NCBI GenBank assembly: GCA_034927475.1
Contig: JAYFPW010000006.1
Span: 9,197-73,196, forward strand
DNA from: Candidatus Elulimicrobiales bacterium
GTDB taxonomy: Bacteria > Patescibacteriota > Minisyncoccia > Phycocordibacterales > UBA5272
Direction: 5' to 3'
DNA length: 64,000 nucleotides
The notes below the pieces were generated by a model. It was not told the DNA's origin, ran no database searches, and saw only the letters and a list, made by a program, of their open reading frames with translations. Of this stretch, positions 7,211-58,346 are shown in pieces (position 1 is the first letter of the stretch; each line of letters begins with the position of its first letter). A program made the position numbers and the translations under genes.

Positions 7211-7966
7211 ATGTTTAACACATTTTTTTTAGCACCGGTTTATAATGTTGTGGTTTTCTTTTTAAACCTTTTTCCTTCTCACGATATAGGTGTGGCTATT
7301 ATTCTTACAACAATCGCAATTAAGATCATTCTGTTGAAATTAAATCTGTCCTCTCAAAGAAGTGCATATTTAATTAAAGATGCACAAACAGAACTTGCTG
7401 AAATTAAAAAGAAATATGAAGGTGATAGTAAAAAAATAGCCGAAGAAACAATGAGGATTTATAAAGAGAAAAAAATTAAACCTTTTTCTAGTATTTTGGT
7501 TGTTTTAATACAGATTCCAATATTTTTCGCTTTGTTTTATGTTTTTAGAGATGGTGGTGTAACTTTAAGACCTGATTTAATATATTCTTTTAATAATTTC
7601 CCTGAAACAGTAAAAAATTTAGCTTTTGGTTTTATGAATTTGTCCCAAAAATATATTTGGGTAGGAGTTTTGACTGGAATCACAATGTTTATTCTTTCCA
7701 AAAGACAAAGTTTAGGATTAGCAAAAACAAAGGATGATAAAAAGACAACAAATAAAAAAGAAGATTTCCAAGCCGTCTTTTCTAAAACAATGCAAATGCA
7801 AATGACTTATTTCTTGCCAGTAATTTCTGGAATATCTGCAGCAGTACTCCCTTCTGCTATTGGGGTTTATTGGACAACAAATAATATACTCTCTCTCTTT
7901 CAAGATATTTATATAAAAAGAAAATTAAAAAAAGAAGGAGAAGCAAAAAGAATAGAAAACAAATAA
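7211..7966 (+). CDS. yidC: Membrane protein insertase YidC/Oxa1 (short form)
   Basis: 251 aa, multi-TM, with a K-rich C-terminal tail. Position is conserved after rnpA. Confidence 0.85.
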   Translation: MFNTFFLAPVYNVVVFFLNLFPSHDIGVAIILTTIAIKIILLKLNLSSQRSAYLIKDAQTELAEIKKKYEGDSKKIAEETMRIYKEKKIKPFSSILVVLIQIPIFFALFYVFRDGGVTLRPDLIYSFNNFPETVKNLAFGFMNLSQKYIWVGVLTGITMFILSKRQSLGLAKTKDDKKTTNKKEDFQAVFSKTMQMQMTYFLPVISGISAAVLPSAIGVYWTTNNILSLFQDIYIKRKLKKEGEAKRIENK

Positions 7967-7968
7967 CA

Positions 7969-9384
7969 TTAATCTCCTCCAGAATATAATATATTATCTA
8001 TGTTTAAAGTCCAAAGAGAACCGTCATTTTTATTTATAAAACCAAGATGGGATTTATAGGAGTTTATATTTAAATTTTTAGCATCAATAATATCTTCAAC
8101 TTGACCGTCTTTTTTAATATCAAACAAAAGTTTTCCATTTGGATAATCACTACTCATTACATAGAAATTGTCTTCCCAAGTGGTCATACCTTGATACCAA
8201 GCATCAGGTAAACCAGTATCATAGTTAATAATTTCTTTTGGTACAGAGCAAATTAAAAGTTGACCATTTGAGGCATTATTTTGTACACATTTATTAGCTA
8301 AAGTTGTGAAATTTAATGAAACTAAATCGTTGTCAGTGAAAGGTGTACTATTAAAGGTTGTGTTTTTATAAAGCTTTATCCCGGAGCCTGTAAAAATAGA
8401 TGTCAATAAATTATTGTTTTCTATTAAAAAGAACATTCCATTATGGTCTCCGTAAAGTTGAGAAAGGTCACCTAAAATATTTTTATGGATATTTACTTTA
8501 TAGAGCGTGTTATTTTCATATGCTGTATCAGTTGTTTGAGCAAAAAGATCACCAATATTAGAAAGAATTAATTTCCAAGAAGAAAGATCGGAGCTATAAA
8601 CTCTTCTACCATAAGAGTCATTTACGTCTTCTAATAAATACCAGTCTGTATAAGTATCGTCCTTTCCGCCAGTTTTTTTATTTTTTTGAACTATATAAGC
8701 TAAACGTGTATTGTTTTGAGAAGTTGTAATATTTTTTATATTATCCGGAAGAGTTGAAGAGTTCATTAAATTCGCAGTAGAGCCATAATATGTAGGTATT
8801 GTAGCACTCACAGTTTTTATTGTATTATCAGCATTTAAATATTGGAAAAATACTCTATTTTTATAACCTCCTTTTTCATTCATAAAGTAAGCTTTTACTG
8901 TATTTGGAAAAGGGGTAATCGTTACTTGATATGGACTAGAAGTTGGAGCAAGTAAATCTTTTTCATAAACAAAACCAGTTTCACTATCAACAAATTGCAG
9001 AATAGTTTTTGTAGAAGTGGCGTCTTGCTCGATACCGTCGATATCGATATATTTATAAGTAAACAGCTTATCATAAAAATTGTACCCAGCCACAGGTTTA
9101 TCCCAAATTTTTATTAAACCCTCAAAATAATAATCATGAGCAATATTTTCATCAAGATTGTTTCCGTCTGTGTCATCCCCCTTATTGTCACCAGTAAAAA
9201 AACTCAAAAGATTTTTAAAATTAAAAGCTGGTTTACCAGATAAGTCTTGCATGTTTTGAGAAGAATTTGTTTTATTTCTTAAAAAAAGAAAATAAAATAG
9301 TGAACCAAAAACGAAGATAGCAATAATAACGATAACTATTTCTTTTTTATATTTTTTAAAAAATGATTGTTTTTTAGGTTCCAT
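7969..9384 (-). CDS. Membrane-anchored extracellular protein (last gene of T4SS-like operon)
   Basis: 471 aa. It has an N-terminal TM (IVIVIIAIFVFGSLFYFLFL) followed by a large N/T/S-rich ectodomain. It is 4 bp from the upstream gene. Confidence 0.5.
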   Translation of the reverse strand: MEPKKQSFFKKYKKEIVIVIIAIFVFGSLFYFLFLRNKTNSSQNMQDLSGKPAFNFKNLLSFFTGDNKGDDTDGNNLDENIAHDYYFEGLIKIWDKPVAGYNFYDKLFTYKYIDIDGIEQDATSTKTILQFVDSETGFVYEKDLLAPTSSPYQVTITPFPNTVKAYFMNEKGGYKNRVFFQYLNADNTIKTVSATIPTYYGSTANLMNSSTLPDNIKNITTSQNNTRLAYIVQKNKKTGGKDDTYTDWYLLEDVNDSYGRRVYSSDLSSWKLILSNIGDLFAQTTDTAYENNTLYKVNIHKNILGDLSQLYGDHNGMFFLIENNNLLTSIFTGSGIKLYKNTTFNSTPFTDNDLVSLNFTTLANKCVQNNASNGQLLICSVPKEIINYDTGLPDAWYQGMTTWEDNFYVMSSDYPNGKLLFDIKKDGQVEDIIDAKNLNINSYKSHLGFINKNDGSLWTLNIDNILYSGGD

Positions 9385-9388
9385 AAGG

Positions 9389-10888
9389 CTATTTTCCAGT
9401 TAGTGACCAATGAACATTATCAGTTGTTCCTAGTTTATTATAAAAACCCCATCTACCACCATTTTCTTTAAGCCATAAAAATTCTTTTGTATTACAAGCT
9501 CCCACCTTTCCGCAACCTCCTATACTTGCATTTGTTAGATCTATCGCGGTACCATTTGAATGATTCGAACCGTTTCCGCCCATACTACAAGGTGTAGCCA
9601 CAGCACTCTTTCCTTTCATTTGATTATATAAACAAACTTGGGCGGCATCATCTCTATATCCAACATAAGCTTCTAATTTTATATTGGCCTCTGACAATGC
9701 AGCTGCTTGCATTTCTTTAAATTTTTGAGCAACGTCTTTTCTTAAATAGATTGGTCCAGCGGGAACACAACCACCATCTCTTTTTGTACCAACTTGTTCT
9801 AATTGATCATTTGTTAAGGCTACACAACCACCTTTACCACCATTGCTTGAAAAAAGCGACATACTTTCTGCTAATTCTTTCTGATATTCCACACAATATT
9901 GTGGAGCTGCTAAATTTGCTAAACGAGAACATCTTCCACCAACCTGACCACAATATCTACTATCCACAATTTCTCTAGCTACTCCCATATAATCTCCCAC
10001 ATCTAAGGCTTTTTTAAGATTTACAAAGCTAGATATACCACCAGACCCCATATTAAAAGTCATATTAATTAAAACGTTTTGGATATTTTCAGGGTGTTCA
10101 CTGAATCTTGATTGTCCTCCAGCAAAAGCTATAGCCATTTGTTTATGTGACTCAAAATCAGCCTCTAAAAGCTTTTTAATGTGCCTTTCTTCAATGGTTA
10201 CAGTTCTGTCGTAATTAAGAAGTTTGTTTACAGTATCCTCAGGTATTTCAGCTCTAAGTAAGTCGTTTTTAACAGTAGCCGCATCCGCTCTTTTTAAATT
10301 AAAACCAACTCCAATACTAGGGTTTCCTGTCGTGTCTGTGTAGATACTATTTCTGCTACCTTCGTCCTGCATGAGCATATCCATAATATTATTTGGACTT
10401 TTATATTTATCATTAGGATTACAAGTTTCAGTGTTAGGAGACATTCTTCTTAATGCGGTATTTGCGTATTTTGTCGCCAAGGTCCAACCTGTTAATTTAG
10501 GGTTGATAAAAGATAAAATCGCATAAGAGAAAATAAAAATTATTAAAGCTATTCCTGCATTTTGTATAAAACTCCTACCTTTTGTTTGTTGATAAATATT
10601 ATCTAAAGTTCCTTTTATAACAGCTCCTTGTATTACACGAAAAACAATTAAAACTATAATAACTACAGCCAAAATAGTTAAAAGATAATTCATTGTACTA
10701 GAAATTCCTCCTGTGTCAGTGTTGTCAAAGGTGGTAGAACTAGATGTACCATCAAAAGAAGAAACATAGTCATAGGTTTCCTGTCTAGAATAAACATCGG
10801 TTTGGTCCTGGCTTTGATTTTGAGAAAAAGAAATATTAAAAGAAAAGAGTGTAAAAATCAAAAAGAAAAAAACAAAAAACTTTTTCAT
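9389..10888 (-). CDS. Bifunctional cell-wall hydrolase: GH24 (T4-type) lysozyme domain + M15/VanY-type D-Ala-D-Ala peptidase domain; VirB1/PrgK-like role
   Basis: Signal peptide plus TM helices. The MLMQDEGSRNSIYTDTTGNPSIGVGF motif matches the T4 lysozyme catalytic E...D...T motif, and VLINMTFNMGSGGISSF matches ALINMVFQMGETGVAGF. The C-terminus has the SNHSNGTAIDL (SxHxxGxAxD) and ...VHW motifs of zinc D,D-carboxypeptidases. Confidence 0.7.
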   Translation of the reverse strand: MKKFFVFFFLIFTLFSFNISFSQNQSQDQTDVYSRQETYDYVSSFDGTSSSTTFDNTDTGGISSTMNYLLTILAVVIIVLIVFRVIQGAVIKGTLDNIYQQTKGRSFIQNAGIALIIFIFSYAILSFINPKLTGWTLATKYANTALRRMSPNTETCNPNDKYKSPNNIMDMLMQDEGSRNSIYTDTTGNPSIGVGFNLKRADAATVKNDLLRAEIPEDTVNKLLNYDRTVTIEERHIKKLLEADFESHKQMAIAFAGGQSRFSEHPENIQNVLINMTFNMGSGGISSFVNLKKALDVGDYMGVAREIVDSRYCGQVGGRCSRLANLAAPQYCVEYQKELAESMSLFSSNGGKGGCVALTNDQLEQVGTKRDGGCVPAGPIYLRKDVAQKFKEMQAAALSEANIKLEAYVGYRDDAAQVCLYNQMKGKSAVATPCSMGGNGSNHSNGTAIDLTNASIGGCGKVGACNTKEFLWLKENGGRWGFYNKLGTTDNVHWSLTGK

Positions 10889-10917
10889 ATATGACTATAT
10901 TTTAACACAAGAATAAG

Positions 10918-11688
10918 CTAATTTTGCTTCAATAGAAAATTTAAAAGAGTTTCCCCTTTTTGTAAAAGTTTAGAATCGTTAGTTATTGTTAAACCTATAC
11001 CAAAATCTCCATAAGCTGTCACTGGTGCTCTATAATCAAAAACATTGGAGCGGTTTATGTTGCCAGGAATACCATTTAAAGACCATGTATAGCTTAAATT
11101 TTCATCTCTAGGAGATTTGGCTGAGAAGAAATATGGTTCTGCTAAAATCTCAAGAGACTCACCTCTATTAACCGCATAATGTTCATATTTTTTATTTAAA
11201 GCGTTGGAGTAAGTAATAATAGGGCTAGAGCTTTTTTTATACAAAATAGGTGTAATTTTTTTAGGATAAATTCTAATAATTTTCTCAGCTAGAAGATTTT
11301 CTTGTCTATTATTTTCATAAACTTTTAACCTGATAACATTCTCAGTTTTTAAAGGATCAAGAGTAATATAAATAATATTTCCTCCAGTTTTTGAATAGTT
11401 GTGCACATAATAGTCATTATATGTCCAAGCGTAAAAGAGTTTACTTTTATCCAAAACTCCAACAGGGGTAAAAATTTCTGCGTCAGCAATAGCTTTTATA
11501 TCGGCTTGTTCAGCTGCCAAACTCTTACCTTCATAAAAAGGAGGTGTATAACTATTTAAAACTTCCCAATCTATAGTGACTTTAGAAGAGATAGTATATA
11601 CCTGTGCTTTTATTATTGAAAAAGTGGCTATAAATAAGAAAGTAAATACTAAAAACAAAAAAGAGAAATATCTTTTATTTTTTTTCAT
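10918..11688 (-). CDS. Secreted hypothetical protein (T4SS-like operon)
   Basis: 256 aa with an N-terminal signal/anchor (FSFLFLVFTFLFIATFSIIKA). It is co-operonic. Confidence 0.5.
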   Translation of the reverse strand: MKKNKRYFSFLFLVFTFLFIATFSIIKAQVYTISSKVTIDWEVLNSYTPPFYEGKSLAAEQADIKAIADAEIFTPVGVLDKSKLFYAWTYNDYYVHNYSKTGGNIIYITLDPLKTENVIRLKVYENNRQENLLAEKIIRIYPKKITPILYKKSSSPIITYSNALNKKYEHYAVNRGESLEILAEPYFFSAKSPRDENLSYTWSLNGIPGNINRSNVFDYRAPVTAYGDFGIGLTITNDSKLLQKGETLLNFLLKQN

Positions 11689-11707
11689 TAAATATATTAT
11701 ATCAGAA

Positions 11708-13540
11708 TTATGCGGCCCGTTGTCTTTTTTTCTTAGCTTCCAAAAGCTGTGCCGGATTAGTTGTAACTATTTGATCTTCAACATAAGAAGAAATAACTTT
11801 TATAGCCACATGTTTTTGCCCAGCAAAGAATATTCCTTCCCCTACTCCAGAACTAAGTAATAAATACTTTTCTTCATCTGTAAGATTAAAAGTTTTTTGG
11901 ACCAGATCTATACTAGAAGGAGATTGTTTTAAAAGTAAAAGCATACTTGAGTTAGTAATAATAGGTAAACCGTAAGCTGAACGCAAAAAGTCTCCTACGT
12001 CTTGAGAAATTACAGACAAACCTAAATAATATTTTCTTCCCCTTTTTGCCATTCCAAACAAAAAGGATGCAGTGTCTTCATTTTTCATCATTATCCAAGC
12101 CTCGTCTATAATTAAAAGCCTTTTCTTTAACTCTTTTCTAATCTCTCCCCAAATATAATGAGTAATAATATACATAGCGACAGGCTTAAGCTCATCCTCC
12201 ATGTCACGAATAGAAAAACAGATTAATTTTTTATTAATATCAATATTAGAAGGTTGCCCAATAAATCCTGACCAGACCCCTTCTGTATATTTAGAAAGTC
12301 TTTGTAAAACACTTTCAGATCCCTCAATACCAGAAAGTACTTCAGCAAAATCTCCTAAGACAGGAAATTCTATACCATCTAAACTTTCGGTTGCCGAGGT
12401 TATATCTTTTATCGCATAAGTTTCTGTTAAAGCTCTATCGACAATAGAATCCTCTTCAGGAGTAAGTCCGCCAAGCATTACTCGCATGAGCCCTACCAAG
12501 TGAATAATATTACTTCTCAAAACATCACCAACAGATTCATCTTCTCCGGGTATTGCTAAATCGAAAGGATTAATGTGATGATCTGAATTTAAAGATATAT
12601 TAAAATATCTACCACCAACAGATTCCGCTAAATATTCATACTCTCTTTCAGGGTCGATGATAATAACATTGGTATCAAACATTAAAGTACGTAAAATTTC
12701 AAGTTTTGTGTAATAAGATTTACCAGATCCAGAAGTAGCAAAAACCATACTGTTGTAGTTCTCAAGAGAAAATCTATCAAATAAAATTAAAGAGCCATTA
12801 TGTCTATTTAAACCATATAAAATACCACTATTTGTTGAAAGGTCGAAAGAAAGAAATGGAAAGAAAGAAGAAAGTGGAGAAGTATTTAGCTGAGTAGTGA
12901 TTTTTATTTCATCTACACAAAAAGGCATTATAGTTTTTAAAGCTTCAGCTTGCTGAAAGAGAGCTGGTCTTAAATAAATAAGCTTACTTTCTAAAATATT
13001 TTTAATTTCAGTTTCTACTTTTTTTAATTCATCATCGGTATCTCCAAAAATCGTAATATAAAGACCAACTTCAAACATCTTTTCACTGGATTGTTGAAGA
13101 GAGTCTCTCAAGTCTTCCAGGTCTCTTAAAGCTGTTTCTAATTTTGGATCACGAACTTCACCTTTTTCTTGCTTTACATAAATTTGACTCTCTATTTCTA
13201 CCACTTTCTTTTGAAATTTTTTCATCATTTCAGCTGTAGCTAAAGGGGTGATATGAATAGAAACATTAAAAATTTTGTCTAGATTAATAATTGGGGCCAA
13301 CCAAGAATCATCTAAATATCTAGGATAAGATATAACAAAAAAACTTTTAGCTAATTTTCCAGAAAGATTTAATTGTTGTGCGTCGACTTTTAAGCCGGCT
13401 GGAGCTATAAAATTTTTCAATTCTGAACTAGCCTCATCATAAACTTCTTCTTTAGAAGGTTCTTCATTTAAATTTTGTTTATTATTTTTTGAAAAAATAT
13501 CTAAAATACCCATAGCTTTATAATTTTTTTGTATTAACAT
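11708..13540 (-). CDS. virB4: VirB4/TrbE/CagE-family T4SS ATPase (C-terminal ATPase part)
   Basis: Walker A FATSGSGKSYY, Walker B LLIIDEAWIMM, and the motif GRKYYLGLSVISQDVGDF. Confidence 0.85.
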   Translation of the reverse strand: MLIQKNYKAMGILDIFSKNNKQNLNEEPSKEEVYDEASSELKNFIAPAGLKVDAQQLNLSGKLAKSFFVISYPRYLDDSWLAPIINLDKIFNVSIHITPLATAEMMKKFQKKVVEIESQIYVKQEKGEVRDPKLETALRDLEDLRDSLQQSSEKMFEVGLYITIFGDTDDELKKVETEIKNILESKLIYLRPALFQQAEALKTIMPFCVDEIKITTQLNTSPLSSFFPFLSFDLSTNSGILYGLNRHNGSLILFDRFSLENYNSMVFATSGSGKSYYTKLEILRTLMFDTNVIIIDPEREYEYLAESVGGRYFNISLNSDHHINPFDLAIPGEDESVGDVLRSNIIHLVGLMRVMLGGLTPEEDSIVDRALTETYAIKDITSATESLDGIEFPVLGDFAEVLSGIEGSESVLQRLSKYTEGVWSGFIGQPSNIDINKKLICFSIRDMEDELKPVAMYIITHYIWGEIRKELKKRLLIIDEAWIMMKNEDTASFLFGMAKRGRKYYLGLSVISQDVGDFLRSAYGLPIITNSSMLLLLKQSPSSIDLVQKTFNLTDEEKYLLLSSGVGEGIFFAGQKHVAIKVISSYVEDQIVTTNPAQLLEAKKKRQRAA

Positions 13541-14105
13541 CTAACTCATTTGGATTAAATAATTTATAAAATAGTCCAACAATTTCTTCCGTGTCTATCA
13601 GTTTTAATTTTAATCCTAAAGCGGTAAGTCCGCTAACCACAATAGAAACTCTTTGCATTAATTGATTTTCATTTTTTATAAAATCCATTTCATTCATTCT
13701 TTTTGTATTTCCAACAAGTGTTGGAATATCATAAGGAACAACTATGTAAAAATTTTTCGTCATAATATTTTGTTCCTCAGTAAATTTTTGTATAAAATCC
13801 GTATATTCTTTTATTTGAATCTTTAAAAGCTCTTCAGAAGCCTCTCTTTCCCTCTCCTTTAAACTTTTTATATAATCACGAATGTCAATTTTTTTAGATT
13901 GAACAAAAATTTGAACATTAAAATCCAAAGAGTTTAAAAAGCTTTGAAAAGCGGTAATAATTCCCATTTGTTCATCCTCACTTTTTAAAGACAAGTTTAA
14001 AGAAGTGGTCGAAAGAATAGCTCTCATGTTGCCACTATTTAAAATAATCACCCCGCTTCTAATTTCTCTAATTGGGACAAAATTTTGAGAAGAGTTTTTT
14101 GCCAT
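13518..14105 (-). CDS. VirB4 N-terminal domain encoded as a separate ORF (overlaps ATPase ORF by 23 nt, different frame)
   Basis: 195 aa resembling the N-terminal region of VirB4/TraC proteins (IPIREIRSGVIILNSG..., SLKSEDEQ...FQSFLNSL). Together with 11708-13540 it sums to ~800 aa, the normal VirB4 length. Confidence 0.55.
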   Translation of the reverse strand: MAKNSSQNFVPIREIRSGVIILNSGNMRAILSTTSLNLSLKSEDEQMGIITAFQSFLNSLDFNVQIFVQSKKIDIRDYIKSLKEREREASEELLKIQIKEYTDFIQKFTEEQNIMTKNFYIVVPYDIPTLVGNTKRMNEMDFIKNENQLMQRVSIVVSGLTALGLKLKLIDTEEIVGLFYKLFNPNELDVNTKKL

Positions 14106-14134
14106 GCTTCTATTATAGCATCAGAAAATAGATA

Positions 14135-14614
14135 CTAAGAATTTTTTGTCTGATTTCTTTTAATAAGTTCTTCTCTTAAATTGACAGCGTGTTTTTTATC
14201 TTCGTCTAAAATATCTAATTTTCCAGACAACTCTCTAATTTTATCAAAAGGACTTTTTTCTTCCTCAATTTTATTTTTCTTTAAAAGATCGATAGCTCTT
14301 AAGTCTTTTTTAGGCTCTTCTTTTTCGATTTTTTTCTCTTGATACCAAACATAAGTTTTGTTTCCAATTAAAAATTTATAAGCTGATTCTAAAATGTCAG
14401 CAAAAGGTCTATTATTTATTTTGACAAAAGCTAGAGCCACAAAAGTTCCAGAAAAAATAAGAATTAAAGGCACAGCTATAATTTTTGCAGGAATAATTCT
14501 CCAAAAAAGATATCCAAAAGCTATAGCCCCCAACAGATACCCAAATTGTTTGAGAGTAAAAGGACCAAAAATCTTATCTTCAATGTCCAAGAATTGAGGA
14601 AGTCTAAATTGCAT
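14135..14614 (-). CDS. PrgI-family / VirB3-like small membrane protein
   Basis: 159 aa with LPQFLDIEDKIFGPFTLKQFGYLLG followed by two TM helices. It sits immediately upstream of VirB4, as in Gram-positive T4SS. Confidence 0.55.
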   Translation of the reverse strand: MQFRLPQFLDIEDKIFGPFTLKQFGYLLGAIAFGYLFWRIIPAKIIAVPLILIFSGTFVALAFVKINNRPFADILESAYKFLIGNKTYVWYQEKKIEKEEPKKDLRAIDLLKKNKIEEEKSPFDKIRELSGKLDILDEDKKHAVNLREELIKRNQTKNS

Positions 14615-14644
14615 GTTTATATTCTATCATTTTTAGCAAAGAAT

Positions 14645-15781
14645 CTAAAAAGCTTCTCTATAGGGATCAAAATTTTCATCAACACTTTCTGGAATCTCTT
14701 CAGACAAAGTACTTTTATAATAGTCATTATTTTTAGCTTTTTGAATTTCTATCTCCTCTTTCTCTCTTTGTTGTCTTAAGGTATCTAAATTTGTTTTCTC
14801 ATCCTCATTTGCAGACAGCTTCTCTTTTAAGTTTTCGACAAGTATTTGACTGAAATCTTCATTTTTGAGAGCTAAAGGATTTTCTTCTGGATATTCTAAT
14901 TCTTCTTCAATTTCCTTTCTCTTAGTCTCCTCTTCTTTTTCTTTGTTTCTTATTTCAGCAACCCTTTCTTCCTCTCTTTTTTCTTTAGCTAAAACTCTTT
15001 GCATTCTTTCATCTTCCTCTCTTTTAATTTGAATCATTCTTTCTTTTATTTTATCCGTATCAGACACATTCTGCATATTTATTTTTGCCAACAAAGAATC
15101 TCTATTCATTTCTTGAACCTTTTTTTCTTCTTCTTTCTTTTTTTCTTCCTCTTTAATAAGCTCTTGTTCAGTCTTCTCTCTTTCTTTATACTGAATTAGA
15201 GGTTCCCCTTTGCCAGTTATAGTACCAGTTCTTTGTAGAAGAATTTTTCTTAGCTCTTCTTTTTCAGCTTCTTCCCTTTTTTCTTTTAAAGTAAGATGTC
15301 TTATTTCTCTTTTGTTTTCAAGTTTACTTTCTAAAATATTTTTACGAATATCAGTAAGAATATAAGTGTCTATACTTTTCAAAATCGAACTTGCTGTAAA
15401 AGATTCCAGCATGATACCGCTAGAGCTAAAACTTTCAACCAGAGTTTCTTTGGCTTCATTAATAGGAAGAAGCCCAACTAAAATTGAAACAGCAATATTT
15501 TCAACAATAACTCTCGCTTTTTCTCCTTCTAATTTTTCTATTTTGCAAATCAAGCGAACACTCTCTTCAAGCTTGTCTCCTAAAATATAGTCTTGTATCA
15601 CTTTTGAAGAATTTGAAAAAGCGGTATCAAATTGAGTAAGGACAATATTTTCATTTTTTTGTGGAGGTTTTTCAGGTTCCTTTTCAGGATTTAAAAAATC
15701 ATAGTCAAAGTCAGCCTCCGTTTCATTTAAAGAATAATCGCCCTCTTTTAGTTCTAAAGCTAATTTATTTTCTTCCGACAT
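14645..15781 (-). CDS. Glu/Lys-rich coiled-coil protein (T4SS-like operon)
   Basis: 378 aa, acidic N-terminus and a long charged coiled-coil region. No catalytic motifs. Confidence 0.5.
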   Translation of the reverse strand: MSEENKLALELKEGDYSLNETEADFDYDFLNPEKEPEKPPQKNENIVLTQFDTAFSNSSKVIQDYILGDKLEESVRLICKIEKLEGEKARVIVENIAVSILVGLLPINEAKETLVESFSSSGIMLESFTASSILKSIDTYILTDIRKNILESKLENKREIRHLTLKEKREEAEKEELRKILLQRTGTITGKGEPLIQYKEREKTEQELIKEEEKKKEEEKKVQEMNRDSLLAKINMQNVSDTDKIKERMIQIKREEDERMQRVLAKEKREEERVAEIRNKEKEEETKRKEIEEELEYPEENPLALKNEDFSQILVENLKEKLSANEDEKTNLDTLRQQREKEEIEIQKAKNNDYYKSTLSEEIPESVDENFDPYREAF

Positions 15782-15815
15782 AAAATAATTATATCAAATA
15801 AATTAGGTTTTTTAA

Positions 15816-18659
15816 TTAAGAGGCGTTTTTTAGAGGTTCCTCAGGTGTCATATTTTTAGTTTTTGTATTAGTATTTTCTCCAGTTTTTTCTCGTAAGTGT
15901 TCAATAATTCTTTTTTTACTTGCAAAATTTGCTTGCTTAAATTCATCTCCAAACTGTTGCTCATTATTGTCTAGTATTTCCCTTACAGTATTACTTTGAA
16001 TAGTTTTTGGAGCTTCTGCTGTACTTTTTGTGCCACCACGATTTACTACGACAACTTCAGGTTTGCTAGAAGTTTTTTTCTCTTTAATATCAGAGCTCTC
16101 TTTTTTTTCTTTTCCCAGTTTTGATTTTCTCTCCAATCTCTCCCTTTCTCTTTCAGATACTCTAAAGTCTGCTAAAACTTTGGAAAGGCTCATATAGGCT
16201 TCTCTCGGATTGAGTTCTTTTAATGCATTTAAGAATTCAGTTTTTAATTTTTCGTTTTCAGGTTTTTCTAGATTTTGTGAAAAATAGTTCTCTCCTTTAC
16301 CTTCTTTTAGAAATTCTTTATCTATAGAAGCTTTTATCTCTTCTTCTTTGTTTTTCATACTCTCAGCACCTGTGCCAGGGTTATCTTTAAAAGTTTGATT
16401 AACATCCTGGAGGAGGTTTTGGGATTTTTTATCTCCAAATAAATCTTTTTCTAATTCCCCTTTCCTCTTTTCTGAATTTCCTAGTACAGTATTCCAGTGC
16501 TTTTTATCAGACTCAGAAATATCTTTTTCGCTTAATTTTTTTCTAGCATAAGCTATATCAGACTGAACTGTACGCAACTCCGATTTCTTTTGTACATTTT
16601 CTTCCAAAGCTTGTTTGTTAGGATTTTTCTTTCCAATATTTCTTGCGTCAAACGAAGAGGTGCTTAATGTCCTGTCAAGCTGACGTCCTCCAGCGGCTAA
16701 TATTTGATTTACACGCTTAGTTCCATCTTCATTTTTTCTTATCCAACCTTGGAATTTGTCCGAATTTGATACAGCTGTAGCTCCACGTCTCATAACAGCC
16801 CCCGTGGTACCAAGTGCAAAATTACCTACAAAGCCACCTACTTTTCCAGCGACTTGACCACCAAGATCAGAACTCATTTTTTTAGAAACTGTAATAGCTA
16901 ATTGTAAAACTACTATAATAATTGCGGAAGCCACACTAGCCCCCATAAAAGTATTTCCTGCTTCACCAGCTCCAGCCATACCAGTAGAAAGTGAATTTAA
17001 TTGAGGATTATTTTGTAAAGAATCTCTAATGGCAGCACCTATTTGTAAAGCTATCAAAACTATAAACATAAAAATCGGAGCAGAGATTACAGAAGTGGTA
17101 AAGCTTTTAATTACCATGTCTCTATATTTATCAATATATTCATTTATACCAGCAGGTAAAAGCATTAATGGAGAAAAAATTAAAACTAGAAGTAAAATTA
17201 TGGCTCGCATAAGTAGTAGAACCATACCTTGAACCAACACGAGAACAGCTACACCATTAATAACTATTTTTATGGCTTGGAATAAAGTAAAACCCCAATC
17301 AGCTCTAGCTGCTCCCAAAGATCTAGTATCGATAGCTAAAACATCAGCCAAAGCATCACCCAAAGTTTCTCCAGGATTATGCATACTTCTATAAATATAA
17401 ATAGAAAGAACGTTTGTTTGATCTATAATCCAGCCAACAATAGCAAAAGAGAAATATACAAATAGAGCTGTAATTAAAATTCTTGGAAGTATTTTTTTAA
17501 TTTTAGAAGTGTCATTATCAATAAGCATTCTAATAAGCATGTAAAACACTATAGGCAGAAGTAGGGATGTTACTAAAGATAAAATAACATTCCTCCAAAC
17601 TAAATAAGCATTTGAATTAACTACCCAGTCATTAAAATTGTAAATACTAAAACGGACAACCCAGTCAAAAATTCCACCAACAAGTTTTGTTAGTCCTTGT
17701 AGTAAAGAATTTATTCCTTCTAAAACTAGATTTACTAAATAAGCCGCAACAGAACAGTTTGGACTTTGCATAACACCCCAAAGACCTGTCGCCTCACAAA
17801 CAGTTGGGGTTTCGTAAGATTCCACCATAACTTCCCCTGAAGGGTTAGTTATAGGACTAGAGGGATTAGTTTTAGGTCCCCCACTAGTTTCTGTTGGGAC
17901 AAAAAAGGTTTCTCCTTTATAAGGAAACTCTGCACCAGTTTTTTCGGCGTCGCTCAAAGTCTTTTTATCTTCACCTCCCAACCAATTCCAACCAGAAGGA
18001 TTTTCGGTTTGATTTTTTATTTCATTTGCAATATCTTTAATACCTTGAGGTATTTTTTCTAACTCTAACACAGTCCGGCCTTCTGTAAGAAAGTCATTAA
18101 TTTCTCTATATATATAGATACGCATTAATTTTGCTGAAGCCCCATCAACATCACCCTCAACAAAGTTATTGGAGACAGCCGAATTTTTCATTTTATTATA
18201 AATAGATAAATAGCTATTGTTGTGAATAGTTTTTGCCTGGTCAAATATCTCTAATAAATATTTTTTAGCCTCAGGGTAAGACGTGGAATCTACAGCATCT
18301 AATTGGTTTTTATATCCAGTAAATAATGAGTCGTATTTAGAAGAGTTATCTGTCTCATTTTTTTTAATTTTCTCTTCAACTTGATTTTGAATAGAAAGAA
18401 GATCTGATGATGGTATTGGTATGTAATCAGTAGAGTATGAGCCAGCACCAAAACTTCCACCTGGAATATATGTGCTTTCTACTTTATAAGATGTTGTTGC
18501 CGTCATCAAAACAGACGTGTCTTTATTGTCTAACTTTATTCCAACAACTATTTTGGCTTCCGTGTTTTTTATACCTAAACTAAAAAATCCTAGAACTATA
18601 AATAAAATAATTCCAAGTGTTTTTGTGGAGAAAATAGAAGAAAACTTTTTCCTTTTCAT
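15816..18659 (-). CDS. VirB6/TrbL-like polytopic membrane protein with large N-terminal ectodomain and charged C-terminal extension
   Basis: 947 aa. It has a signal/TM, a ~400 aa extracellular region, a central block of >=6 TM helices (VILSLVTSLLLPIVFYMLIRML ... AIILLLVLIFSPLMLLPAG ...), and a K/E-rich ~300 aa tail. Confidence 0.5.
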   Translation of the reverse strand: MKRKKFSSIFSTKTLGIILFIVLGFFSLGIKNTEAKIVVGIKLDNKDTSVLMTATTSYKVESTYIPGGSFGAGSYSTDYIPIPSSDLLSIQNQVEEKIKKNETDNSSKYDSLFTGYKNQLDAVDSTSYPEAKKYLLEIFDQAKTIHNNSYLSIYNKMKNSAVSNNFVEGDVDGASAKLMRIYIYREINDFLTEGRTVLELEKIPQGIKDIANEIKNQTENPSGWNWLGGEDKKTLSDAEKTGAEFPYKGETFFVPTETSGGPKTNPSSPITNPSGEVMVESYETPTVCEATGLWGVMQSPNCSVAAYLVNLVLEGINSLLQGLTKLVGGIFDWVVRFSIYNFNDWVVNSNAYLVWRNVILSLVTSLLLPIVFYMLIRMLIDNDTSKIKKILPRILITALFVYFSFAIVGWIIDQTNVLSIYIYRSMHNPGETLGDALADVLAIDTRSLGAARADWGFTLFQAIKIVINGVAVLVLVQGMVLLLMRAIILLLVLIFSPLMLLPAGINEYIDKYRDMVIKSFTTSVISAPIFMFIVLIALQIGAAIRDSLQNNPQLNSLSTGMAGAGEAGNTFMGASVASAIIIVVLQLAITVSKKMSSDLGGQVAGKVGGFVGNFALGTTGAVMRRGATAVSNSDKFQGWIRKNEDGTKRVNQILAAGGRQLDRTLSTSSFDARNIGKKNPNKQALEENVQKKSELRTVQSDIAYARKKLSEKDISESDKKHWNTVLGNSEKRKGELEKDLFGDKKSQNLLQDVNQTFKDNPGTGAESMKNKEEEIKASIDKEFLKEGKGENYFSQNLEKPENEKLKTEFLNALKELNPREAYMSLSKVLADFRVSERERERLERKSKLGKEKKESSDIKEKKTSSKPEVVVVNRGGTKSTAEAPKTIQSNTVREILDNNEQQFGDEFKQANFASKKRIIEHLREKTGENTNTKTKNMTPEEPLKNAS

Positions 18660-18680
18660 TTATTTATTTTATCATAAATA

Positions 18681-18718
18681 AAAAACAAAAAGCGGAAAAT
18701 TCCGCTTTTTGTTTTTTA
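18681..18718. terminator. Symmetric hairpin flanked by A/T runs inside the T4SS-like operon
   Basis: AAAAGCGGAAAATTCCGCTTTTT lies between the 803-aa gene and the VirB6-like gene. It could terminate or attenuate in either direction. Confidence 0.5.
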
Positions 18719-18731
18719 AAAGAAAGCAATA

Positions 18732-21143
18732 TTATTCAGCTGCACACTCTTTAATTGCTGAGGTTATTGCGGCTTGAATAGAAGTTTCGTCTTTACAGTG
18801 ATTTCTAAGTTCAAGGTCGTCAGTATTAGCTGACTGGGCACAAATATTTCTGATTGAAATTTCCGGAGATATACAAGGGTCTGGCTGGCCTTCTAGTGGA
18901 TCTGGAATTGGTTCATTATAATCTTTCAAGGAATCAGTAAGTATTTGTAGTTCTGCATTATTACAAATACCAATCTTTAGTTGGTTACAATAAGACAGTT
19001 CAGAAAAAGTTTTTGAGCTGCTAGAGTCTATCACAGCAGTATTTTTTGCGGAAGGTCTTGGTAAATTTGGATCCAAATACTCTAGATTTTTAATACCATA
19101 AGCTGAAAACATTCCTGTATCTTTTGCTGGAATTGTTGAAGGAGATCCCGCCTTTAAAGAATCTCTTAACATTAAGTATGCCCTAACTCTTAAGTACCCT
19201 AAAACGTGTTTTGTATAAGGTCCTTCCACTTCTCTTCTTGATGGAACATAATAGGAAGCGTCTTCTTCTATTGCTGCAACAGGGTCAGAAGTTAGTTCGG
19301 AGTATTCTGGAATATATTGCCAATCGGAGATAAGATATTCATAATCTTTTTCTGTATAAGCCCCATCCAAAGCTTGCGCTAAAGCTTCTTGATTATTTTG
19401 CGTATCAACATCTTTTGTGTCTCTTAAATCCATTAAAAGTTTTCTCATTTGTTGTTCGCGATAATTATTTTTTGCCATTTCTTTGATGAGATCTCTTGTT
19501 TCCATTGTTTGATTTACCAAAGCTACAGTTAATTTTTTTGCAGCGTCCGTCTTATTTGTAGCAGATTTTCGAATATTTTTACTTTTTCTAGGATAGAAAA
19601 TACTTTTCCAAAAACCTACATTCATAGCATCCTGTTGAGCATTTACGACGGCTGTTTTAGCTCTTTCTACAGAAGTTTTTAATACTAAGTAAGTATATGA
19701 ATTAGTGTTTAACCTTTCAGTATTTACTATTCTTATATTTTCATAAATATCTAAAGCTCTTTGCAAGTCATCTGAAGAATATTTTTCTGAACCAAAAGCA
19801 TACTCTCTTGAAGCTTCTTCTGTGCTAACCCAAAGAAGATTTTGAGTGTCTTGGGTTTTTTGTAAAGCACCTAGAGATGTTGCTAGTCCACTATAAGGGT
19901 TGTCATAAGGATTATTTGTCACGGCATAAATATCTTTTCTACCAACATTTATTATTGAGGAGATTAAGTTCATTGTATCAGCAGCGCCAGTAAGATCTCC
20001 ATTTTTTAATTTATTATGAATAGAGTCTAGTCTGGCTTTTATACTATCGTAAGGTGCGTTTGCAGCAGCGGAAACTTTTTCTTGCAAAACAGCACCACTT
20101 CCTTGAGCTGTAGAGGTTTGTTGAGAGCAGAATTGTGTAGCGTCTTCAGGGTTAAATTTTACCTCTTTACCATCTTTATCTACACATTTTTGGTCCCCTA
20201 AAAACATTCCTGTAGCTTCAGTTTGTTTTGATGTAGCGTCAACGACTTTATCTTTTTGGGCTAAAATATTAGAGATAGCTAAGTTAACAACCCCTGAAGG
20301 TGTGTTAGCTGGATTAGCAAGAGCTTCACTGGTTCTTGGTCCTCCATAGCCAGCGTTAGCTAAACCAATAAATACAGCTTGAGCTCTAGCGGCTTCTTTT
20401 TGTGGTTTTTGTAAACTAGTATTACATAATTTATCTATATCTACATCACCAACTGCTTTTTTTGGGCGAGCAAAAGTTTCTGGTTCTCCATTTTTTATTA
20501 TATTTTTTAATTCAGGACTATTACAAATTTCATCTTTTACTATATAAGGCAAACTAAAGTTTACGACTTTTCCTAAAGCTGTATCTGAAGTATTTTTTGT
20601 AAAATCAGCAATGTCTTTATAGATGTCTGCTGTGTATGGAGTCGTGTTTACCGTAAGTTGTATATTAGATAGACCCTTTTTAATTTCATTTACAGAAATC
20701 ATGTCTAAATAATTTCCAAAATTAGTTACAACTTGCTGACCTTGTGTATAAATGTTTGTAGCCTGATCTCTGGTTATTCCTAAATTAGTCATAACTGCAT
20801 CGCCGACACGATTAAGGACATCGCTAGAAGCATTTTTTGCAAAAGTCTCTGCGTCAAAATTTTTTATTCCTTGCACAAGTTGTTTTGCCGCTAAAGTGTT
20901 TTGGTAAATAACCATACTGTCATTTATAAGCTCTTTAGCTTGAACAGCTTTATCTGCTATCCATTTTGCTGTATCTTGACCAAAAATAGCCCCGAGTATT
21001 ACATCTCCAGTATCTCCTACACCTAAAAAAGCAGAAGCTTTTTTAGGTAATAAGCTAGGAGTCAAAAACGAAAAAATTAAAATCAGAGCCAATATTTTTT
21101 TAGAAATTTGTTTTATATTTATCATATTTTTATTTTTAGTCAT
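18732..21143 (-). CDS. Large secreted protein (candidate surface/pilus-associated component of T4SS-like system)
   Basis: 803 aa with a signal peptide (ILALILIFSFLTPSLLPKKASA) and a Cys-rich C-terminal ~80 aa. No enzymatic motif. Confidence 0.5.
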   Translation of the reverse strand: MTKNKNMINIKQISKKILALILIFSFLTPSLLPKKASAFLGVGDTGDVILGAIFGQDTAKWIADKAVQAKELINDSMVIYQNTLAAKQLVQGIKNFDAETFAKNASSDVLNRVGDAVMTNLGITRDQATNIYTQGQQVVTNFGNYLDMISVNEIKKGLSNIQLTVNTTPYTADIYKDIADFTKNTSDTALGKVVNFSLPYIVKDEICNSPELKNIIKNGEPETFARPKKAVGDVDIDKLCNTSLQKPQKEAARAQAVFIGLANAGYGGPRTSEALANPANTPSGVVNLAISNILAQKDKVVDATSKQTEATGMFLGDQKCVDKDGKEVKFNPEDATQFCSQQTSTAQGSGAVLQEKVSAAANAPYDSIKARLDSIHNKLKNGDLTGAADTMNLISSIINVGRKDIYAVTNNPYDNPYSGLATSLGALQKTQDTQNLLWVSTEEASREYAFGSEKYSSDDLQRALDIYENIRIVNTERLNTNSYTYLVLKTSVERAKTAVVNAQQDAMNVGFWKSIFYPRKSKNIRKSATNKTDAAKKLTVALVNQTMETRDLIKEMAKNNYREQQMRKLLMDLRDTKDVDTQNNQEALAQALDGAYTEKDYEYLISDWQYIPEYSELTSDPVAAIEEDASYYVPSRREVEGPYTKHVLGYLRVRAYLMLRDSLKAGSPSTIPAKDTGMFSAYGIKNLEYLDPNLPRPSAKNTAVIDSSSSKTFSELSYCNQLKIGICNNAELQILTDSLKDYNEPIPDPLEGQPDPCISPEISIRNICAQSANTDDLELRNHCKDETSIQAAITSAIKECAAE

Positions 21144-22022
21144 TTATCTCATTTTTACATTAAATTCATTAAAATAATTAAAGAATAAAAGAGCGGTATT
21201 GGAAAGTTCTTTTTGGAAATCTTCAGCAAAAAGATCCCCGTTAATTAGAATATATTTAGCTGGGTCAGCATCTATTTGCTGAATAGAGTTATAGTAAGCT
21301 ATATCTTTTGAAATTAAATTTATTAACTCGAGTTGATATGTTGCTCCTCTTTCTGTAGCTGGAATAGAAATTAAATTATTAATTAAAGTGTTGTTTATGT
21401 TTATATTCTTTTGCATCATATTTTTCATTTCTTCCCAAAGAGAAAGGAACGTATTTTCGTCTATAGAGGTTGCGTTAGAATATGAAGAGAAAGGGTTTTT
21501 GGGTAGCTTATTTAATTCTTGTCCATATATTTGAAAAGTATTATAAATATCGTCATAATACTCTTGTAAACTCTCTTTATTTTCTTCGCGGATAATATTT
21601 AAATTATCTAAAGTGTATTTTTTGCCTACAAGTTGTTCTTGATAATTAAAAATAATATCAGCCAAGATTTTTCCTCTAGCTGTAGGATCAGTCATTCCGT
21701 TTTGTTCTAAATAAAGATTAGTTAAATATAGAGATCTAGATAAATCTTCAGTTAAATTTGCATCAGTATTATTTGTATAATCTTTCCCCTCTTCTACAGT
21801 AGGGTTTAGGTTAATACCATAATCGGAAGCAATTTTTTGTATATCTAAATAGAATTTTCCATCTTTTTTCACATTCCCATACTTTGAATAGGAATTTGAA
21901 GTTAATATAATCATAACTATTGCCGCAATAACCCCTAAAGCATATAAATATATTTTTATATCTACTTTAGAAAGCTTGTCTCGCAAGTTATTCCAAAAAA
22001 CAGCAAGATTTTCATTTTTCAT
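21144..22022 (-). CDS. Bitopic membrane protein (first gene of T4SS-like operon; possibly VirB8-like)
   Basis: 292 aa with a single N-terminal TM (IYLYALGVIAAIVMIILT). The stop and start abut the next gene. Confidence 0.45.
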   Translation of the reverse strand: MKNENLAVFWNNLRDKLSKVDIKIYLYALGVIAAIVMIILTSNSYSKYGNVKKDGKFYLDIQKIASDYGINLNPTVEEGKDYTNNTDANLTEDLSRSLYLTNLYLEQNGMTDPTARGKILADIIFNYQEQLVGKKYTLDNLNIIREENKESLQEYYDDIYNTFQIYGQELNKLPKNPFSSYSNATSIDENTFLSLWEEMKNMMQKNININNTLINNLISIPATERGATYQLELINLISKDIAYYNSIQQIDADPAKYILINGDLFAEDFQKELSNTALLFFNYFNEFNVKMR

Positions 22023-24957: not shown

Positions 24958-26004
24958 TTAATTCTTTTTTTCGTATTCTTTTCTATAAATTCTTTTTAGA
25001 AAATGTTTTATGGTCTCATCTTTTTTAGGCTCAGTGTCAAAATCATCAACTAAATCTTTTAAAATATCAAGCATTTTTTCTCTATCTTTTTCATCTACAC
25101 CTTCAAGCTCTTTCTTATCTTTCAAAAAATCTTTAGCATTTAAATTCTCTAAAGAGCTTAGGAAAATATTTTTCTTAAAAAGAAAACCGTTTCTTTCAAA
25201 TTTATCTACAATCTTTTTAATTTTTTCTTTTACGTATTTTTCTTTTTTATCGTATTCTGGCTCTTCTTTTTCACACTTATCACTATATTTTTCCTTGTTT
25301 TCCTCTAGTTTTGCTTTTTCTTTATCTTCATCATACTCCTCATTTTCATCTTCATTCTCTTCTTTTAATTCTCTTTCTCTTTCATTTTTTTTCTCTTCTT
25401 TTTCTTCCGCTTCTTCCTCCTCTATCTCCACTTCTTCTTTTTCTTCTTTAATATTTTTAGATAAATTTAAAGTATAGTCTTTCTCAGTAATTTCTGAATG
25501 TATTTCTCTTTTTTCACTCTCTTCTTTTTCTATTTTATTTTCTGAAATAGAATAAACCTCCAAATCTTTTATTCGACTCTCCATTTGTTCAAGAACAGAA
25601 TTTAACTCCGAGAGTTTTAAATTTATTTTCTCTTGTATATTTTCTTCAGAAACGGATAAATTTTCATTTTGTAGTAAAAGATTATTATTTAAATTTTCTT
25701 CTAAGTCTTCAATTTTTTTGTCTAGAGACTTTTGGAGTTTTTCAAATTCTCCAGAAATTTCTGTGCTAGCAATTTCGGCGAATTTTCGAATTTCTTCCCC
25801 CACAATTCTTTTGCTGACTTTTTGTATTTTGGAATCTAAAAGATTATCACTTTCTTCTCGACTTTTATTAGACAAAGAGAGTGTATTTCTAGTTTCTTCA
25901 GAATCGCTCGACGCTCTTTTTGCAATACGTCTCCTTACATCTTCAAGATTTTCAACATCTTTTTTTATGTAAGGGCTTTTTATATCCAATTTGTCGTTAT
26001 ACAT
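24958..26004 (-). CDS. Highly acidic E/K-rich coiled-coil protein
   Basis: 348 aa of low-complexity charged repeats. Coding potential is supported by length and codon periodicity only. Confidence 0.4.
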   Translation of the reverse strand: MYNDKLDIKSPYIKKDVENLEDVRRRIAKRASSDSEETRNTLSLSNKSREESDNLLDSKIQKVSKRIVGEEIRKFAEIASTEISGEFEKLQKSLDKKIEDLEENLNNNLLLQNENLSVSEENIQEKINLKLSELNSVLEQMESRIKDLEVYSISENKIEKEESEKREIHSEITEKDYTLNLSKNIKEEKEEVEIEEEEAEEKEEKKNERERELKEENEDENEEYDEDKEKAKLEENKEKYSDKCEKEEPEYDKKEKYVKEKIKKIVDKFERNGFLFKKNIFLSSLENLNAKDFLKDKKELEGVDEKDREKMLDILKDLVDDFDTEPKKDETIKHFLKRIYRKEYEKKN

Positions 26005-58329: not shown

Positions 58330-58346
58330 AAAGTAAAAAGAAAAAT

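Follow-up and report, generated by a model that had tools for sequence, protein, structure and literature searches.

Type IV secretion systems (T4SSs) of Patescibacteria are the closest described relatives of the gene cluster reported here, a run of ten open reading frames (ORFs) at positions 7969-22022 of a 64,000-nt stretch of DNA (the window) from a Candidatus Elulimicrobiales bacterium (assembly GCA_034927475.1, contig JAYFPW010000006.1, positions 9,197-73,196, forward strand). Epibiotic growth of Southlakia epibionticum requires a T4SS (Wang et al., 2023, Cell; PMC10633639), which is similar to Gram-positive conjugative systems, has no recognisable coupling or relaxase proteins and includes a pilin array. 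PMC12857230 reports that deletion of comEC in S. epibionticum abolishes competence and not viability, and that the essentiality of the T4SS is thus not due to ComEC. Proposed functions of such systems include both effector delivery and the uptake of DNA or nucleotides (PMC11665869), and a 2026 preprint links T4SS-like tubes of Patescibacteria with the acquisition of host RNA.

A survey of 3,035 Patescibacteria genomes identified VirB4 in 2,417 of them, mostly as one clade nested in MPF_FATA, and TrsD in 2,221 assemblies (Quiñonero-Coronel et al., 2025, Microb Genom; PMC12102498). PrgI/VirB3 was common in this survey, VirB6 was hard to detect and VirB8 was almost absent. Relaxases were present in 103 of the 3,035 genomes, and most Patescibacteria have their VirD4-like genes at a long distance from virB4. 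The virB4 gene of Paceibacteria and Microgenomatia is found near dnaA, dnaN, rnpA, ksgA and rpmH.

The ten-ORF cluster is very likely a chromosomally fixed, origin-proximal T4SS of Paceibacteria (Parcubacteria/OD1), which belong to the candidate phyla radiation (CPR), and would be part of the published Patescibacteria lineage derived from MPF_FATA machinery. A system of this kind has already been published, of which the locus is an ordinary example. The initial annotation of this DNA, made from the sequence alone, had implied that the cluster was novel; the system, the separate TrsD and VirB4 genes, the lack of a relaxase and the origin-side position are all described in PMC12102498 and PMC10633639.

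Organization of the gene cluster

All ten ORFs are located on the minus strand and read from 22022 to 7969. The intervening gaps measure 0-72 nt, except that ORF6 and ORF7, which are in different frames, share 23 nt. The initial annotation had described ten co-directional, nearly gapless ORFs here, and its coordinates were exact; a hairpin in the 72-nt gap between ORF2 and ORF3 can now be added. The features of the cluster are as follows.

ORF1, 21144-22022, minus strand: bitopic membrane protein of 292 aa, ectodomain without family match
ORF2, 18732-21143, minus strand: secreted or surface protein of 803 aa with a Cys-rich C-terminus, fast-evolving
Hairpin, 18679-18718, minus strand: intrinsic-terminator-like, in the 72-nt gap between ORF2 and ORF3
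ORF3, 15816-18659, minus strand: polytopic protein of 947 aa, tentatively extended VirB6-like
ORF4, 14645-15781, minus strand: K/E-rich, cytoplasmic protein of 378 aa, probably coiled-coil
ORF5, 14135-14614, minus strand: PrgI/VirB3-like protein of 159 aa with two transmembrane (TM) helices
ORF6, 13518-14105, minus strand: TrsD-like protein of 195 aa, a detached VirB4 N-terminal domain
ORF7, 11708-13540, minus strand: VirB4 ATPase body of 610 aa with Walker A and B motifs
ORF8, 10918-11688, minus strand: protein of 256 aa, predicted N-terminal TM helix and two tandem Ig/FnIII-like beta-sandwiches
ORF9, 9389-10888, minus strand: protein of 499 aa with signal peptide, pilin module, GH24 and VanY/LAS domains
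ORF10, 7969-9384, minus strand: protein of 471 aa, predicted TM helix, disordered linker and seven-bladed beta-propeller

Identical proteins with the same gene calls occur in a bioreactor metagenome and in contigs of several independent sequencing runs. Because of these independent occurrences, and because the arrangement is kept in relatives, the genes of the cluster are regarded as real rather than as chance ORFs. A hydropathy, cysteine and charge scan of the ten ORFs reproduced the topology features noted at the outset, namely a bitopic ORF1, a secreted, Cys-tailed ORF2, a polytopic ORF3, a charged ORF4 and an anchored ORF10. Protein families were called by Pfam and NCBIfam profile searches with curated bit cut-offs, which gave no significant match for ORFs 1, 2, 3, 4, 8 and 10. 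When the ten proteins were compared with the Prg and Pcf proteins of pCF10 by phmmer, VirB4 alone was matched.

The PrgI, TrsD and VirB4 core

ORF7 encodes the body of a VirB4 ATPase. It matches the CD1110-type VirB4 model NF045971 at 380.2 bits (cut-off 325) over profile positions 182-734, and this best curated VirB4 model represents a monoderm family. Among PDB sequences, ORF7 is related to the solved VirB4 C-terminal domain 4ag5 (E=1.6e-38) and to TrwK (E=2e-5), and it also matches pCF10 PrgJ (E=3e-44). Both nucleotide-binding motifs are intact, with Walker A (ATSGSGKS) at residue 268 and Walker B (LLIIDE) at residue 475.

The N-terminal part of VirB4 is encoded separately by ORF6. In NCBIfam, ORF6 matches the CD1110 model at positions 2-171 and VirB4_plasma, the mycoplasma VirB4 model, at positions 101-285 (E=1.4e-12). 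It also matches TrsD (NF041427; E=3.3e-9) with 36.8 bits, which is below the curated cut-off of 200, and has a precomputed match to the TraC-like family PF26593. Since the 752 positions of the CD1110 model are covered at 2-171 by ORF6 and at 182-734 by ORF7, the two ORFs together make up one complete VirB4. The 23-nt overlap probably couples their translation.

Relatives of ORF7 were retrieved by a scan of one genome per species, which yielded at least 549 loci; the best 80 of these, with 64-86% VirB4 identity, are referred to here as the related loci. In 78 of 79 related loci TrsD and VirB4 are likewise encoded by separate ORFs, which overlap by a median of about 17 nt; a frameshift artefact or pseudogene is therefore ruled out.

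ORF5, located directly upstream of TrsD and VirB4, contains two TM helices and matches PrgI (PF12666) at 43 bits (cut-off 27; E=6.6e-11). The calls of PrgI/VirB3, split VirB4 and GH24/VanY hydrolase made in the initial annotation thus hold, with ORF5, ORF7 and ORF9 all passing the Pfam or NCBIfam cut-offs, and so does the Gram-positive type of the T4SS core (PrgI, VirB4 and hydrolase).

Genomic context and conservation

The cluster is flanked on one side by dnaN, dnaA, rpmH, rnpA and yidC and on the other by ksgA and uvrD. In relatives, the conserved gene order is uvrD, ksgA, then genes for a bitopic, a secreted, a polytopic and a soluble protein, followed by PrgI, TrsD, VirB4, the Ig-like protein, the pilin-domain protein, the propeller protein, yidC, rnpA, rpmH, dnaA and dnaN. 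About 60 species-level genomes have the cluster at this place, with ksgA on one side and yidC/dnaA on the other. Conservation was counted by tblastn of the window proteins against the 80 related loci, each taken with its ±10-kb neighbourhood, and matches were obtained as follows.

TrsD: 79 of 80 loci
PrgI: 77 of 80 loci
ORF8: 68 of 80 loci, directly after VirB4
ORF10: 58 of 80 loci
yidC: 59 of 80 loci
dnaA: 57 of 80 loci
ksgA: 36 of 80 loci

All tblastn matches agree with the window in order and orientation. Sequence similarity to ORFs 1-4 and 9 is detectable in few loci, although these ORFs are conserved in position, and all ten positions are occupied in related genomes by proteins of similar size and topology. 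The place between the Ig-like and the propeller protein is nearly always taken by a protein with about three TM-like segments. The contents of the interval from ksgA to PrgI were read in the 36 related loci that contain both genes. Nearly all of the best 80 relatives are metagenome-assembled genomes (MAGs) titled Paceibacterota, Parcubacteria, Nomurabacteria or similar. Many of the MAGs with related loci are titled 'uncultured Candidatus Saccharibacteria bacterium' (TPA_asm series), which is probably a generic automatic label and not the true class.

The G+C content is 0.30-0.35 across the cluster, the same as in the window and flanks. A search for signs of an integrated element revealed no G+C shift, no flanking repeats and no adjacent tRNA. 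Among window ORFs of at least 100 aa, no relaxase family of any MOB class and no type IV coupling protein (T4CP) family (VirD4, TcpA or PcfC) was identified, and tblastn with pCF10 PcfC and PcfG retrieved nothing from the window or from the 80 related loci (1.48 Mb). The absence of relaxase and VirD4 from the window, as noted initially, was therefore borne out by both searches. So were the chromosomal context between ksgA/uvrD and the dnaA region, the presence of ComM, RecJ and a split ComEC in the window and, by the comparison with related CPR genomes, the expected conservation of the arrangement. That the cluster is vertically kept in the origin region is strong evidence against a mobile element.

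The rest of the window encodes housekeeping functions, including PBP1, ComM, a XerC/D-like recombinase, PGK, TIM, NusA, trigger factor, ClpP, RNase Y, CCA-adding enzyme, RecJ, RNase H, the split ComEC, tRNAs and RNase P RNA. ComEC is divided into a Competence-domain ORF (56773-58329) and a metallo-beta-lactamase ORF (58347-59330) on the plus strand. Upstream of uvrD, an ORF at 24958-26004 (minus strand) encodes a 348-aa protein with up to 64% K+E per 50 aa, with no family and no tblastn match in the 80 loci. Two further ORFs encode possible surface or adhesin proteins. One, at 62379-64000 on the plus strand, runs off the end of the window and has a signal peptide and about nine 42-aa (126-nt) BNR/Asp-box-like repeats; the other, at 45629-47920 on the minus strand, is a second secreted protein of BNR/sortilin type.

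A hydrolase with a pilin-like module

The C-terminal part of ORF9 carries two peptidoglycan hydrolase domains. The GH24 domain at residues 175-309 (9962-10366) matches Phage_lysozyme (PF00959) at 25.5 bits (cut-off 22.3), and the VanY/LAS domain at residues 380-485 (9434-9751) matches VanY (PF02557) at 49.8 bits (cut-off 25). ORF9 keeps the E...D...S/T pattern of T4-type lysozyme (DEG...YTD...S) and the zinc ligands H-x6-D...H. By analogy, ORF9 would fill the role of VirB1; it is not homologous to VirB1/SLT.

The N-terminal part consists of a signal peptide followed by hydrophobic helices at residues 68-86 and 110-128 with a basic loop between them. A profile of the 87-residue module was built from 39 positional orthologs and matched ORF9 residues 52-133 (10490-10735) with E=5.6e-13, or 2.9e-6 without the INP motif; no other window protein scored below 0.2. 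The ortholog modules lead to known pilin families, as 33 of 35 match PF18895 (T4SS_pilin) and 12 match TrbC/VirB2, with several reaching the 26.6-bit cut-off of PF18895. Through this ortholog-built profile, the N-terminus of ORF9 is assigned transitively as a divergent VirB2-like pilin module. The initial annotation had seen no pilin, a statement that no longer holds in view of this module. None of the small intergenic ORFs of the window shows the leader and two-TM pattern of a stand-alone pilin.

Fusion of the module to hydrolases is not confined to ORF9. A set of 99 ORFs located between VirB4 and yidC (98 from the related loci plus ORF9) includes 42 that match PF18895, and hydrolase domains in this set comprise NlpC/P60 (7), VanY (5), SLT (4) and Amidase_5 (2), plus others. 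Pilin and VanY domains, and likewise pilin and NlpC/P60 domains, occur within single polypeptides among the orthologs. At least 118 aa follow the module in 63 of the 64 module-bearing proteins scanned, and in many of them up to 486 aa precede it. We found no mention of a pilin-hydrolase fusion in PMC12102498, published in 2025, and it is apparently an unreported detail.

In some loci the module is present more than once. The ORF at L050:13810-15231 contains two pilin modules, and loci L030 and L081 have two pilin-domain genes each, which suggests duplication of the module in these lineages.

VirB2 pilins have both ends outside the membrane and the loop inside. Given this topology, the lysozyme and peptidase domains of ORF9 would therefore be located outside the membrane, a placement that fits their function.

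The probable VirB6-like protein ORF3

ORF3 comprises a signal, an ectodomain of about 320 aa, about six TM segments at residues 353-594 (about 16725-17657) and a K/E-rich cytoplasmic tail. Neither the whole protein nor its TM core alone gave a Pfam match at E<=0.1 by hmmscan, and a precomputed match to TrbL_3 (PF19590) is graded weak. Among the positional orthologs, one of 36 matches TrbL (PF04610; 0.0034). A profile search with the TM core retrieved 17 homologs, two of which carry TrbL_3 (PF19590), both matching TrbL at about 0.01. Alignment of ORF3 with pCF10 PrgH by hhalign gave E=0.009 over 140 co-linear columns, but with a probability of 4.5%. Matches of the ORF3 profile to LGR4 among PDB sequences were rejected as low-complexity and TM noise.

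A 607-1202-aa protein with 6-11 TM segments occupies the ORF3 position in 35 of the 36 loci. An 'extended VirB6' has been described in PMC12857230, and the architecture and position of ORF3 fit this description. On topology, position and weak matches, ORF3 is a probable, still unproven, VirB6-like protein; of the initial call, topology and position stand, and the family matches are weak.

Other components

ORF8 and ORF10 are the best-conserved unnamed components of the Paceibacteria locus. The AlphaFold2 model of ORF8 (pLDDT 88) contains a TM helix and two Ig/FnIII-like sandwiches, and its Foldseek matches in PDB are all generic Ig/FnIII tandems. ORF10 is predicted to consist of an N-terminal TM helix, a disordered linker (residues 37-86) and a seven-bladed beta-propeller ectodomain. 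Both are probably wall-spanning or surface parts of the apparatus.

ORF8 was considered as the missing VirB8 and ORF10, because of its position, as an analogue of VirB8 or PrgL, and both were rejected; ORF1 was considered as VirB8-like as well. The two Ig/FnIII domains predicted for ORF8 are not the NTF2 fold, and the propeller predicted for ORF10 is likewise not NTF2 and is a generic one with no T4SS-specific structural match. For ORF1, profile search gave no sequence signal to PrgL or to any PDB chain. Family profiles of ORF8, ORF10 and ORF1 retrieved nothing meaningful from PDB sequences.

In about 20 of the 59 loci with VirB4 and yidC, an extra ORF of 115-190 aa with up to five TM-like segments is located between VirB4 and the Ig-like protein (for example L021:11818-12219, L024:11836-12225 and L073:11789-12199). 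The pilin-module profile does not match this extra ORF, which is absent from the window, where the gap at this place is 19 nt.

ORF1 has one TM segment at residues ~22-40, and a one-TM protein of about 270-345 aa follows ksgA at this position in most of the 36 loci. Bacterial TSP3 (thrombospondin type-3, Ca-binding) repeats are present just after the TM helix in 11 of 29 positional orthologs of ORF1, and are absent from ORF1 of the window. ORF2 has a signal-like N-terminus and six Cys at residues 719-800, within its last 85 residues, and has no match in Pfam, NCBIfam or PDB. Related loci encode at this position a 310-840-aa protein with a signal or a single TM, with sequence similarity in three of 80. 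ORF4 reaches 52% K+E per 50-aa window and has no family match in Pfam or NCBIfam; its position between the polytopic protein and PrgI is occupied in related loci by a protein of 144-383 aa with 0-1 TM.

Transcription of the cluster

The 72-nt gap between ORF2 and ORF3 is the sole sizeable gap in the cluster. The hairpin in it has perfect 19-nt arms (18 pairs with a loop of 4 in one scan; a 100% complementary repeat) followed by a T-run. Flanked by both an A-run and a T-run, it looks like a bidirectional intrinsic terminator. ORF1 and ORF2 may be co-transcribed with ksgA and uvrD, and ORF3-ORF10 may form a second unit. At the other end of the cluster, yidC (plus strand) and ORF10 (minus strand) are convergent with stop codons 2 nt apart (7966-7969), leaving no space for a terminator on either strand.

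Possible role and alternative explanations

Because no relaxase or coupling protein is encoded nearby and the chromosomal position is fixed, host interaction is the most likely role of the system, rather than conjugation or ComEC-linked uptake. An integrated conjugative element or its remnant, transferring DNA between cells with relaxase, oriT and coupling protein encoded elsewhere, is very improbable. In its favour, VirB4 falls within the CD1110 conjugal-transfer family and has a homolog in PrgJ of pCF10, a tyrosine recombinase gene is present at 30837-31874, and Patescibacteria often have VirD4-like genes that are not near virB4 (PMC12102498). However, an integrated conjugative element would move, whereas this cluster keeps the same housekeeping neighbours in about 60 species-level genomes over a range of 64-86% VirB4 identity, with neither a G+C shift nor flanking direct repeats. 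Relaxase and T4CP genes are missing from the window and from the related loci, and the rarity of relaxases in the Patescibacteria survey (103 of 3,035 genomes; PMC12102498) also speaks against this origin. The recombinase is XerC/D-like and lies about 9 kb away, beyond uvrD. Still more remote is the idea of a decaying cluster, in which the division of VirB4 would stem from a pseudogene frameshift or from misassembly and the unassigned ORFs would be noise. The 23-nt overlap of ORF6 and ORF7 in different frames does have the look of a frameshifted gene, but this is effectively refuted by the persistence of the split, with a median overlap of about 17 nt, in 78 of 79 loci. The split is moreover present in independently assembled runs, N-domains of the TrsD type stand alone in pGO1-type systems and in 2,221 Patescibacteria assemblies (PMC12102498), the Walker A and B motifs are intact and all ten positions are filled in relatives.

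A DNA-uptake machine comparable to Helicobacter ComB or Sulfolobales Ced, feeding ComEC, ComM and RecJ in competence or nucleotide scavenging, is unlikely, if less so than conjugation. ComM (27334-28893), RecJ (54478-56121) and the split ComEC (56773-59330) are all in the window, and ORF7 weakly resembles the archaeal importer CedB (E=2.3e-10; 39.7 bits, cut-off 700). Uptake has also been proposed for Patescibacteria (PMC11665869), and host RNA is linked with T4SS-like tubes in the 2026 preprint. However, ComM is about 5 kb and RecJ and ComEC are 32-37 kb from the cluster, outside the conserved ±10-kb neighbourhood, and the similarity to CedB reflects the shared ATPase fold only. In S. epibionticum, competence depends on type IV pili, and according to PMC12857230 comEC is dispensable while the T4SS is essential, so the two are not functionally coupled. 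The domesticated, non-conjugative T4SS proposed in the initial annotation is thus upheld by synteny in about 60 species-level genomes, and its link to uptake through ComEC, ComM and RecJ is not, given their place outside the conserved neighbourhood and the dispensability of comEC.

Several points weigh against a host-interaction T4SS of the published Patescibacteria lineage. The data on essentiality were obtained in Saccharimonadia, which are a different class. Genes for a coupling protein or a relaxase could be present elsewhere in the genome. The VirB6 homology of ORF3 is weak, and no VirB8-like component was found in the predicted folds of ORF8 and ORF10 or by searching the ORF1 profile against PrgL and PDB. 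ORF1, ORF2 and ORF4 have no assigned fold; ORF1 and ORF2 belong to the apparatus by conserved position only, and the hairpin between ORF2 and ORF3 may place them in a separate transcription unit. Compared directly with PF18895, ORF9 residues 69-128 do not score significantly (E=1; 9.9 bits, cut-off 26.6).

Proposed working of the apparatus

Drawing on knowledge of the protein families, we propose how a host-interaction T4SS of this composition could work. The VirB4 ATPase, acting as two polypeptides (TrsD-like ORF6 and ORF7), would dock on the membrane via PrgI/VirB3 (ORF5) and the extended VirB6-like ORF3, and together these would form the membrane translocon. ORF9 would be anchored by its VirB2-like two-helix module, presenting the lysozyme and the D-Ala-D-Ala-type peptidase outside the membrane. 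There it could cut peptidoglycan and let the apparatus cross the wall, and it may also join, or prime, a short pilus-like conduit. ORF8, ORF10, ORF1 and the secreted ORF2 would form the wall-spanning or surface part and replace the missing VirB8 and adhesins. The cargo could be exported protein or imported host macromolecules.

A more specific and rather doubtful extension is that the T4SS 'pilin' of Paceibacteria is, instead of a free subunit, a fixed-position modular protein with exchangeable wall-degrading domains (GH24 and VanY here; NlpC/P60, VanY, SLT or Amidase_5 elsewhere). Should the module form a polymer or be located at the tip of a conduit, the enzyme would be presented to the host wall and not only to the cell's own, and the whole would be a device that breaches the host wall and extracts host macromolecules. 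ORF8 and ORF10 would be lineage-specific replacements of VirB8 and adhesins.

The sole genetically tractable CPR bacterium depends on its Patescibacteria T4SS to live as an epibiont, and hence the question of its substrate is of real interest. The present analysis provides a ten-gene parts list for the Paceibacteria version, with evidence that each position is kept in about 60 species, fold predictions for two components that had no name, and a VirB2-like module that is habitually fused to variable peptidoglycan hydrolases. This fusion could guide experiments on how the cells get through their own wall or that of the host.

Comparison with known systems

The window shares with the Patescibacteria T4SSs (PMC10633639, PMC12102498) a VirB4 of MPF_FATA type, a separate TrsD, PrgI/VirB3 and, tentatively, a VirB6-like protein. 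As in those systems, lysozyme and peptidase domains are encoded downstream of virB4, and no relaxase or T4CP is nearby. The chromosomal site beside dnaA, dnaN, rnpA, rpmH and ksgA follows the Paceibacteria pattern. In contrast to the S. epibionticum locus, which has six stand-alone VirB2-like pilins, the window has none and instead carries a single module fused to a hydrolase. Whereas PMC12102498 names no Ig-like or beta-propeller components, both are predicted here.

The resemblance of the ORF9 module to VirB2/TrbC pilins (PF04956, PF18895) lies in a leader followed by two hydrophobic helices with a short basic loop. Canonical VirB2/TrbC pilins, however, are about 70-120 aa long with no appended enzyme, whereas the module of ORF9 carries a hydrolase.

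In the MPF_FATA prototype, pCF10 of Enterococcus faecalis, the gene order PrgH (VirB6-like), PrgI, PrgJ, PrgK is the same as in the window. PrgH is upstream of PrgI as ORF3 is of ORF5, but in the window ORF4 intervenes. PrgJ is a single polypeptide, whereas VirB4 of the window is split. The hydrolases of both systems are membrane-anchored and have two catalytic domains, although PrgK has SLT/CHAP-type domains rather than GH24 and VanY, and pCF10 has no pilin module. PcfC (T4CP), the relaxase PcfG, PrgL (VirB8-like) and the adhesins PrgB and PrgC of pCF10 are not detectable in the window. The pGO1/pSK41 Trs systems of Staphylococcus aureus (TrsD and TrsE) are the sole MPF_FATA subclass with a stand-alone TrsD beside VirB4 (PMC12102498), as found here. 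The pGO1 subclass differs in being plasmid-borne and conjugative, and it is without a VirB6 homolog, as which ORF3 is tentatively assigned here.

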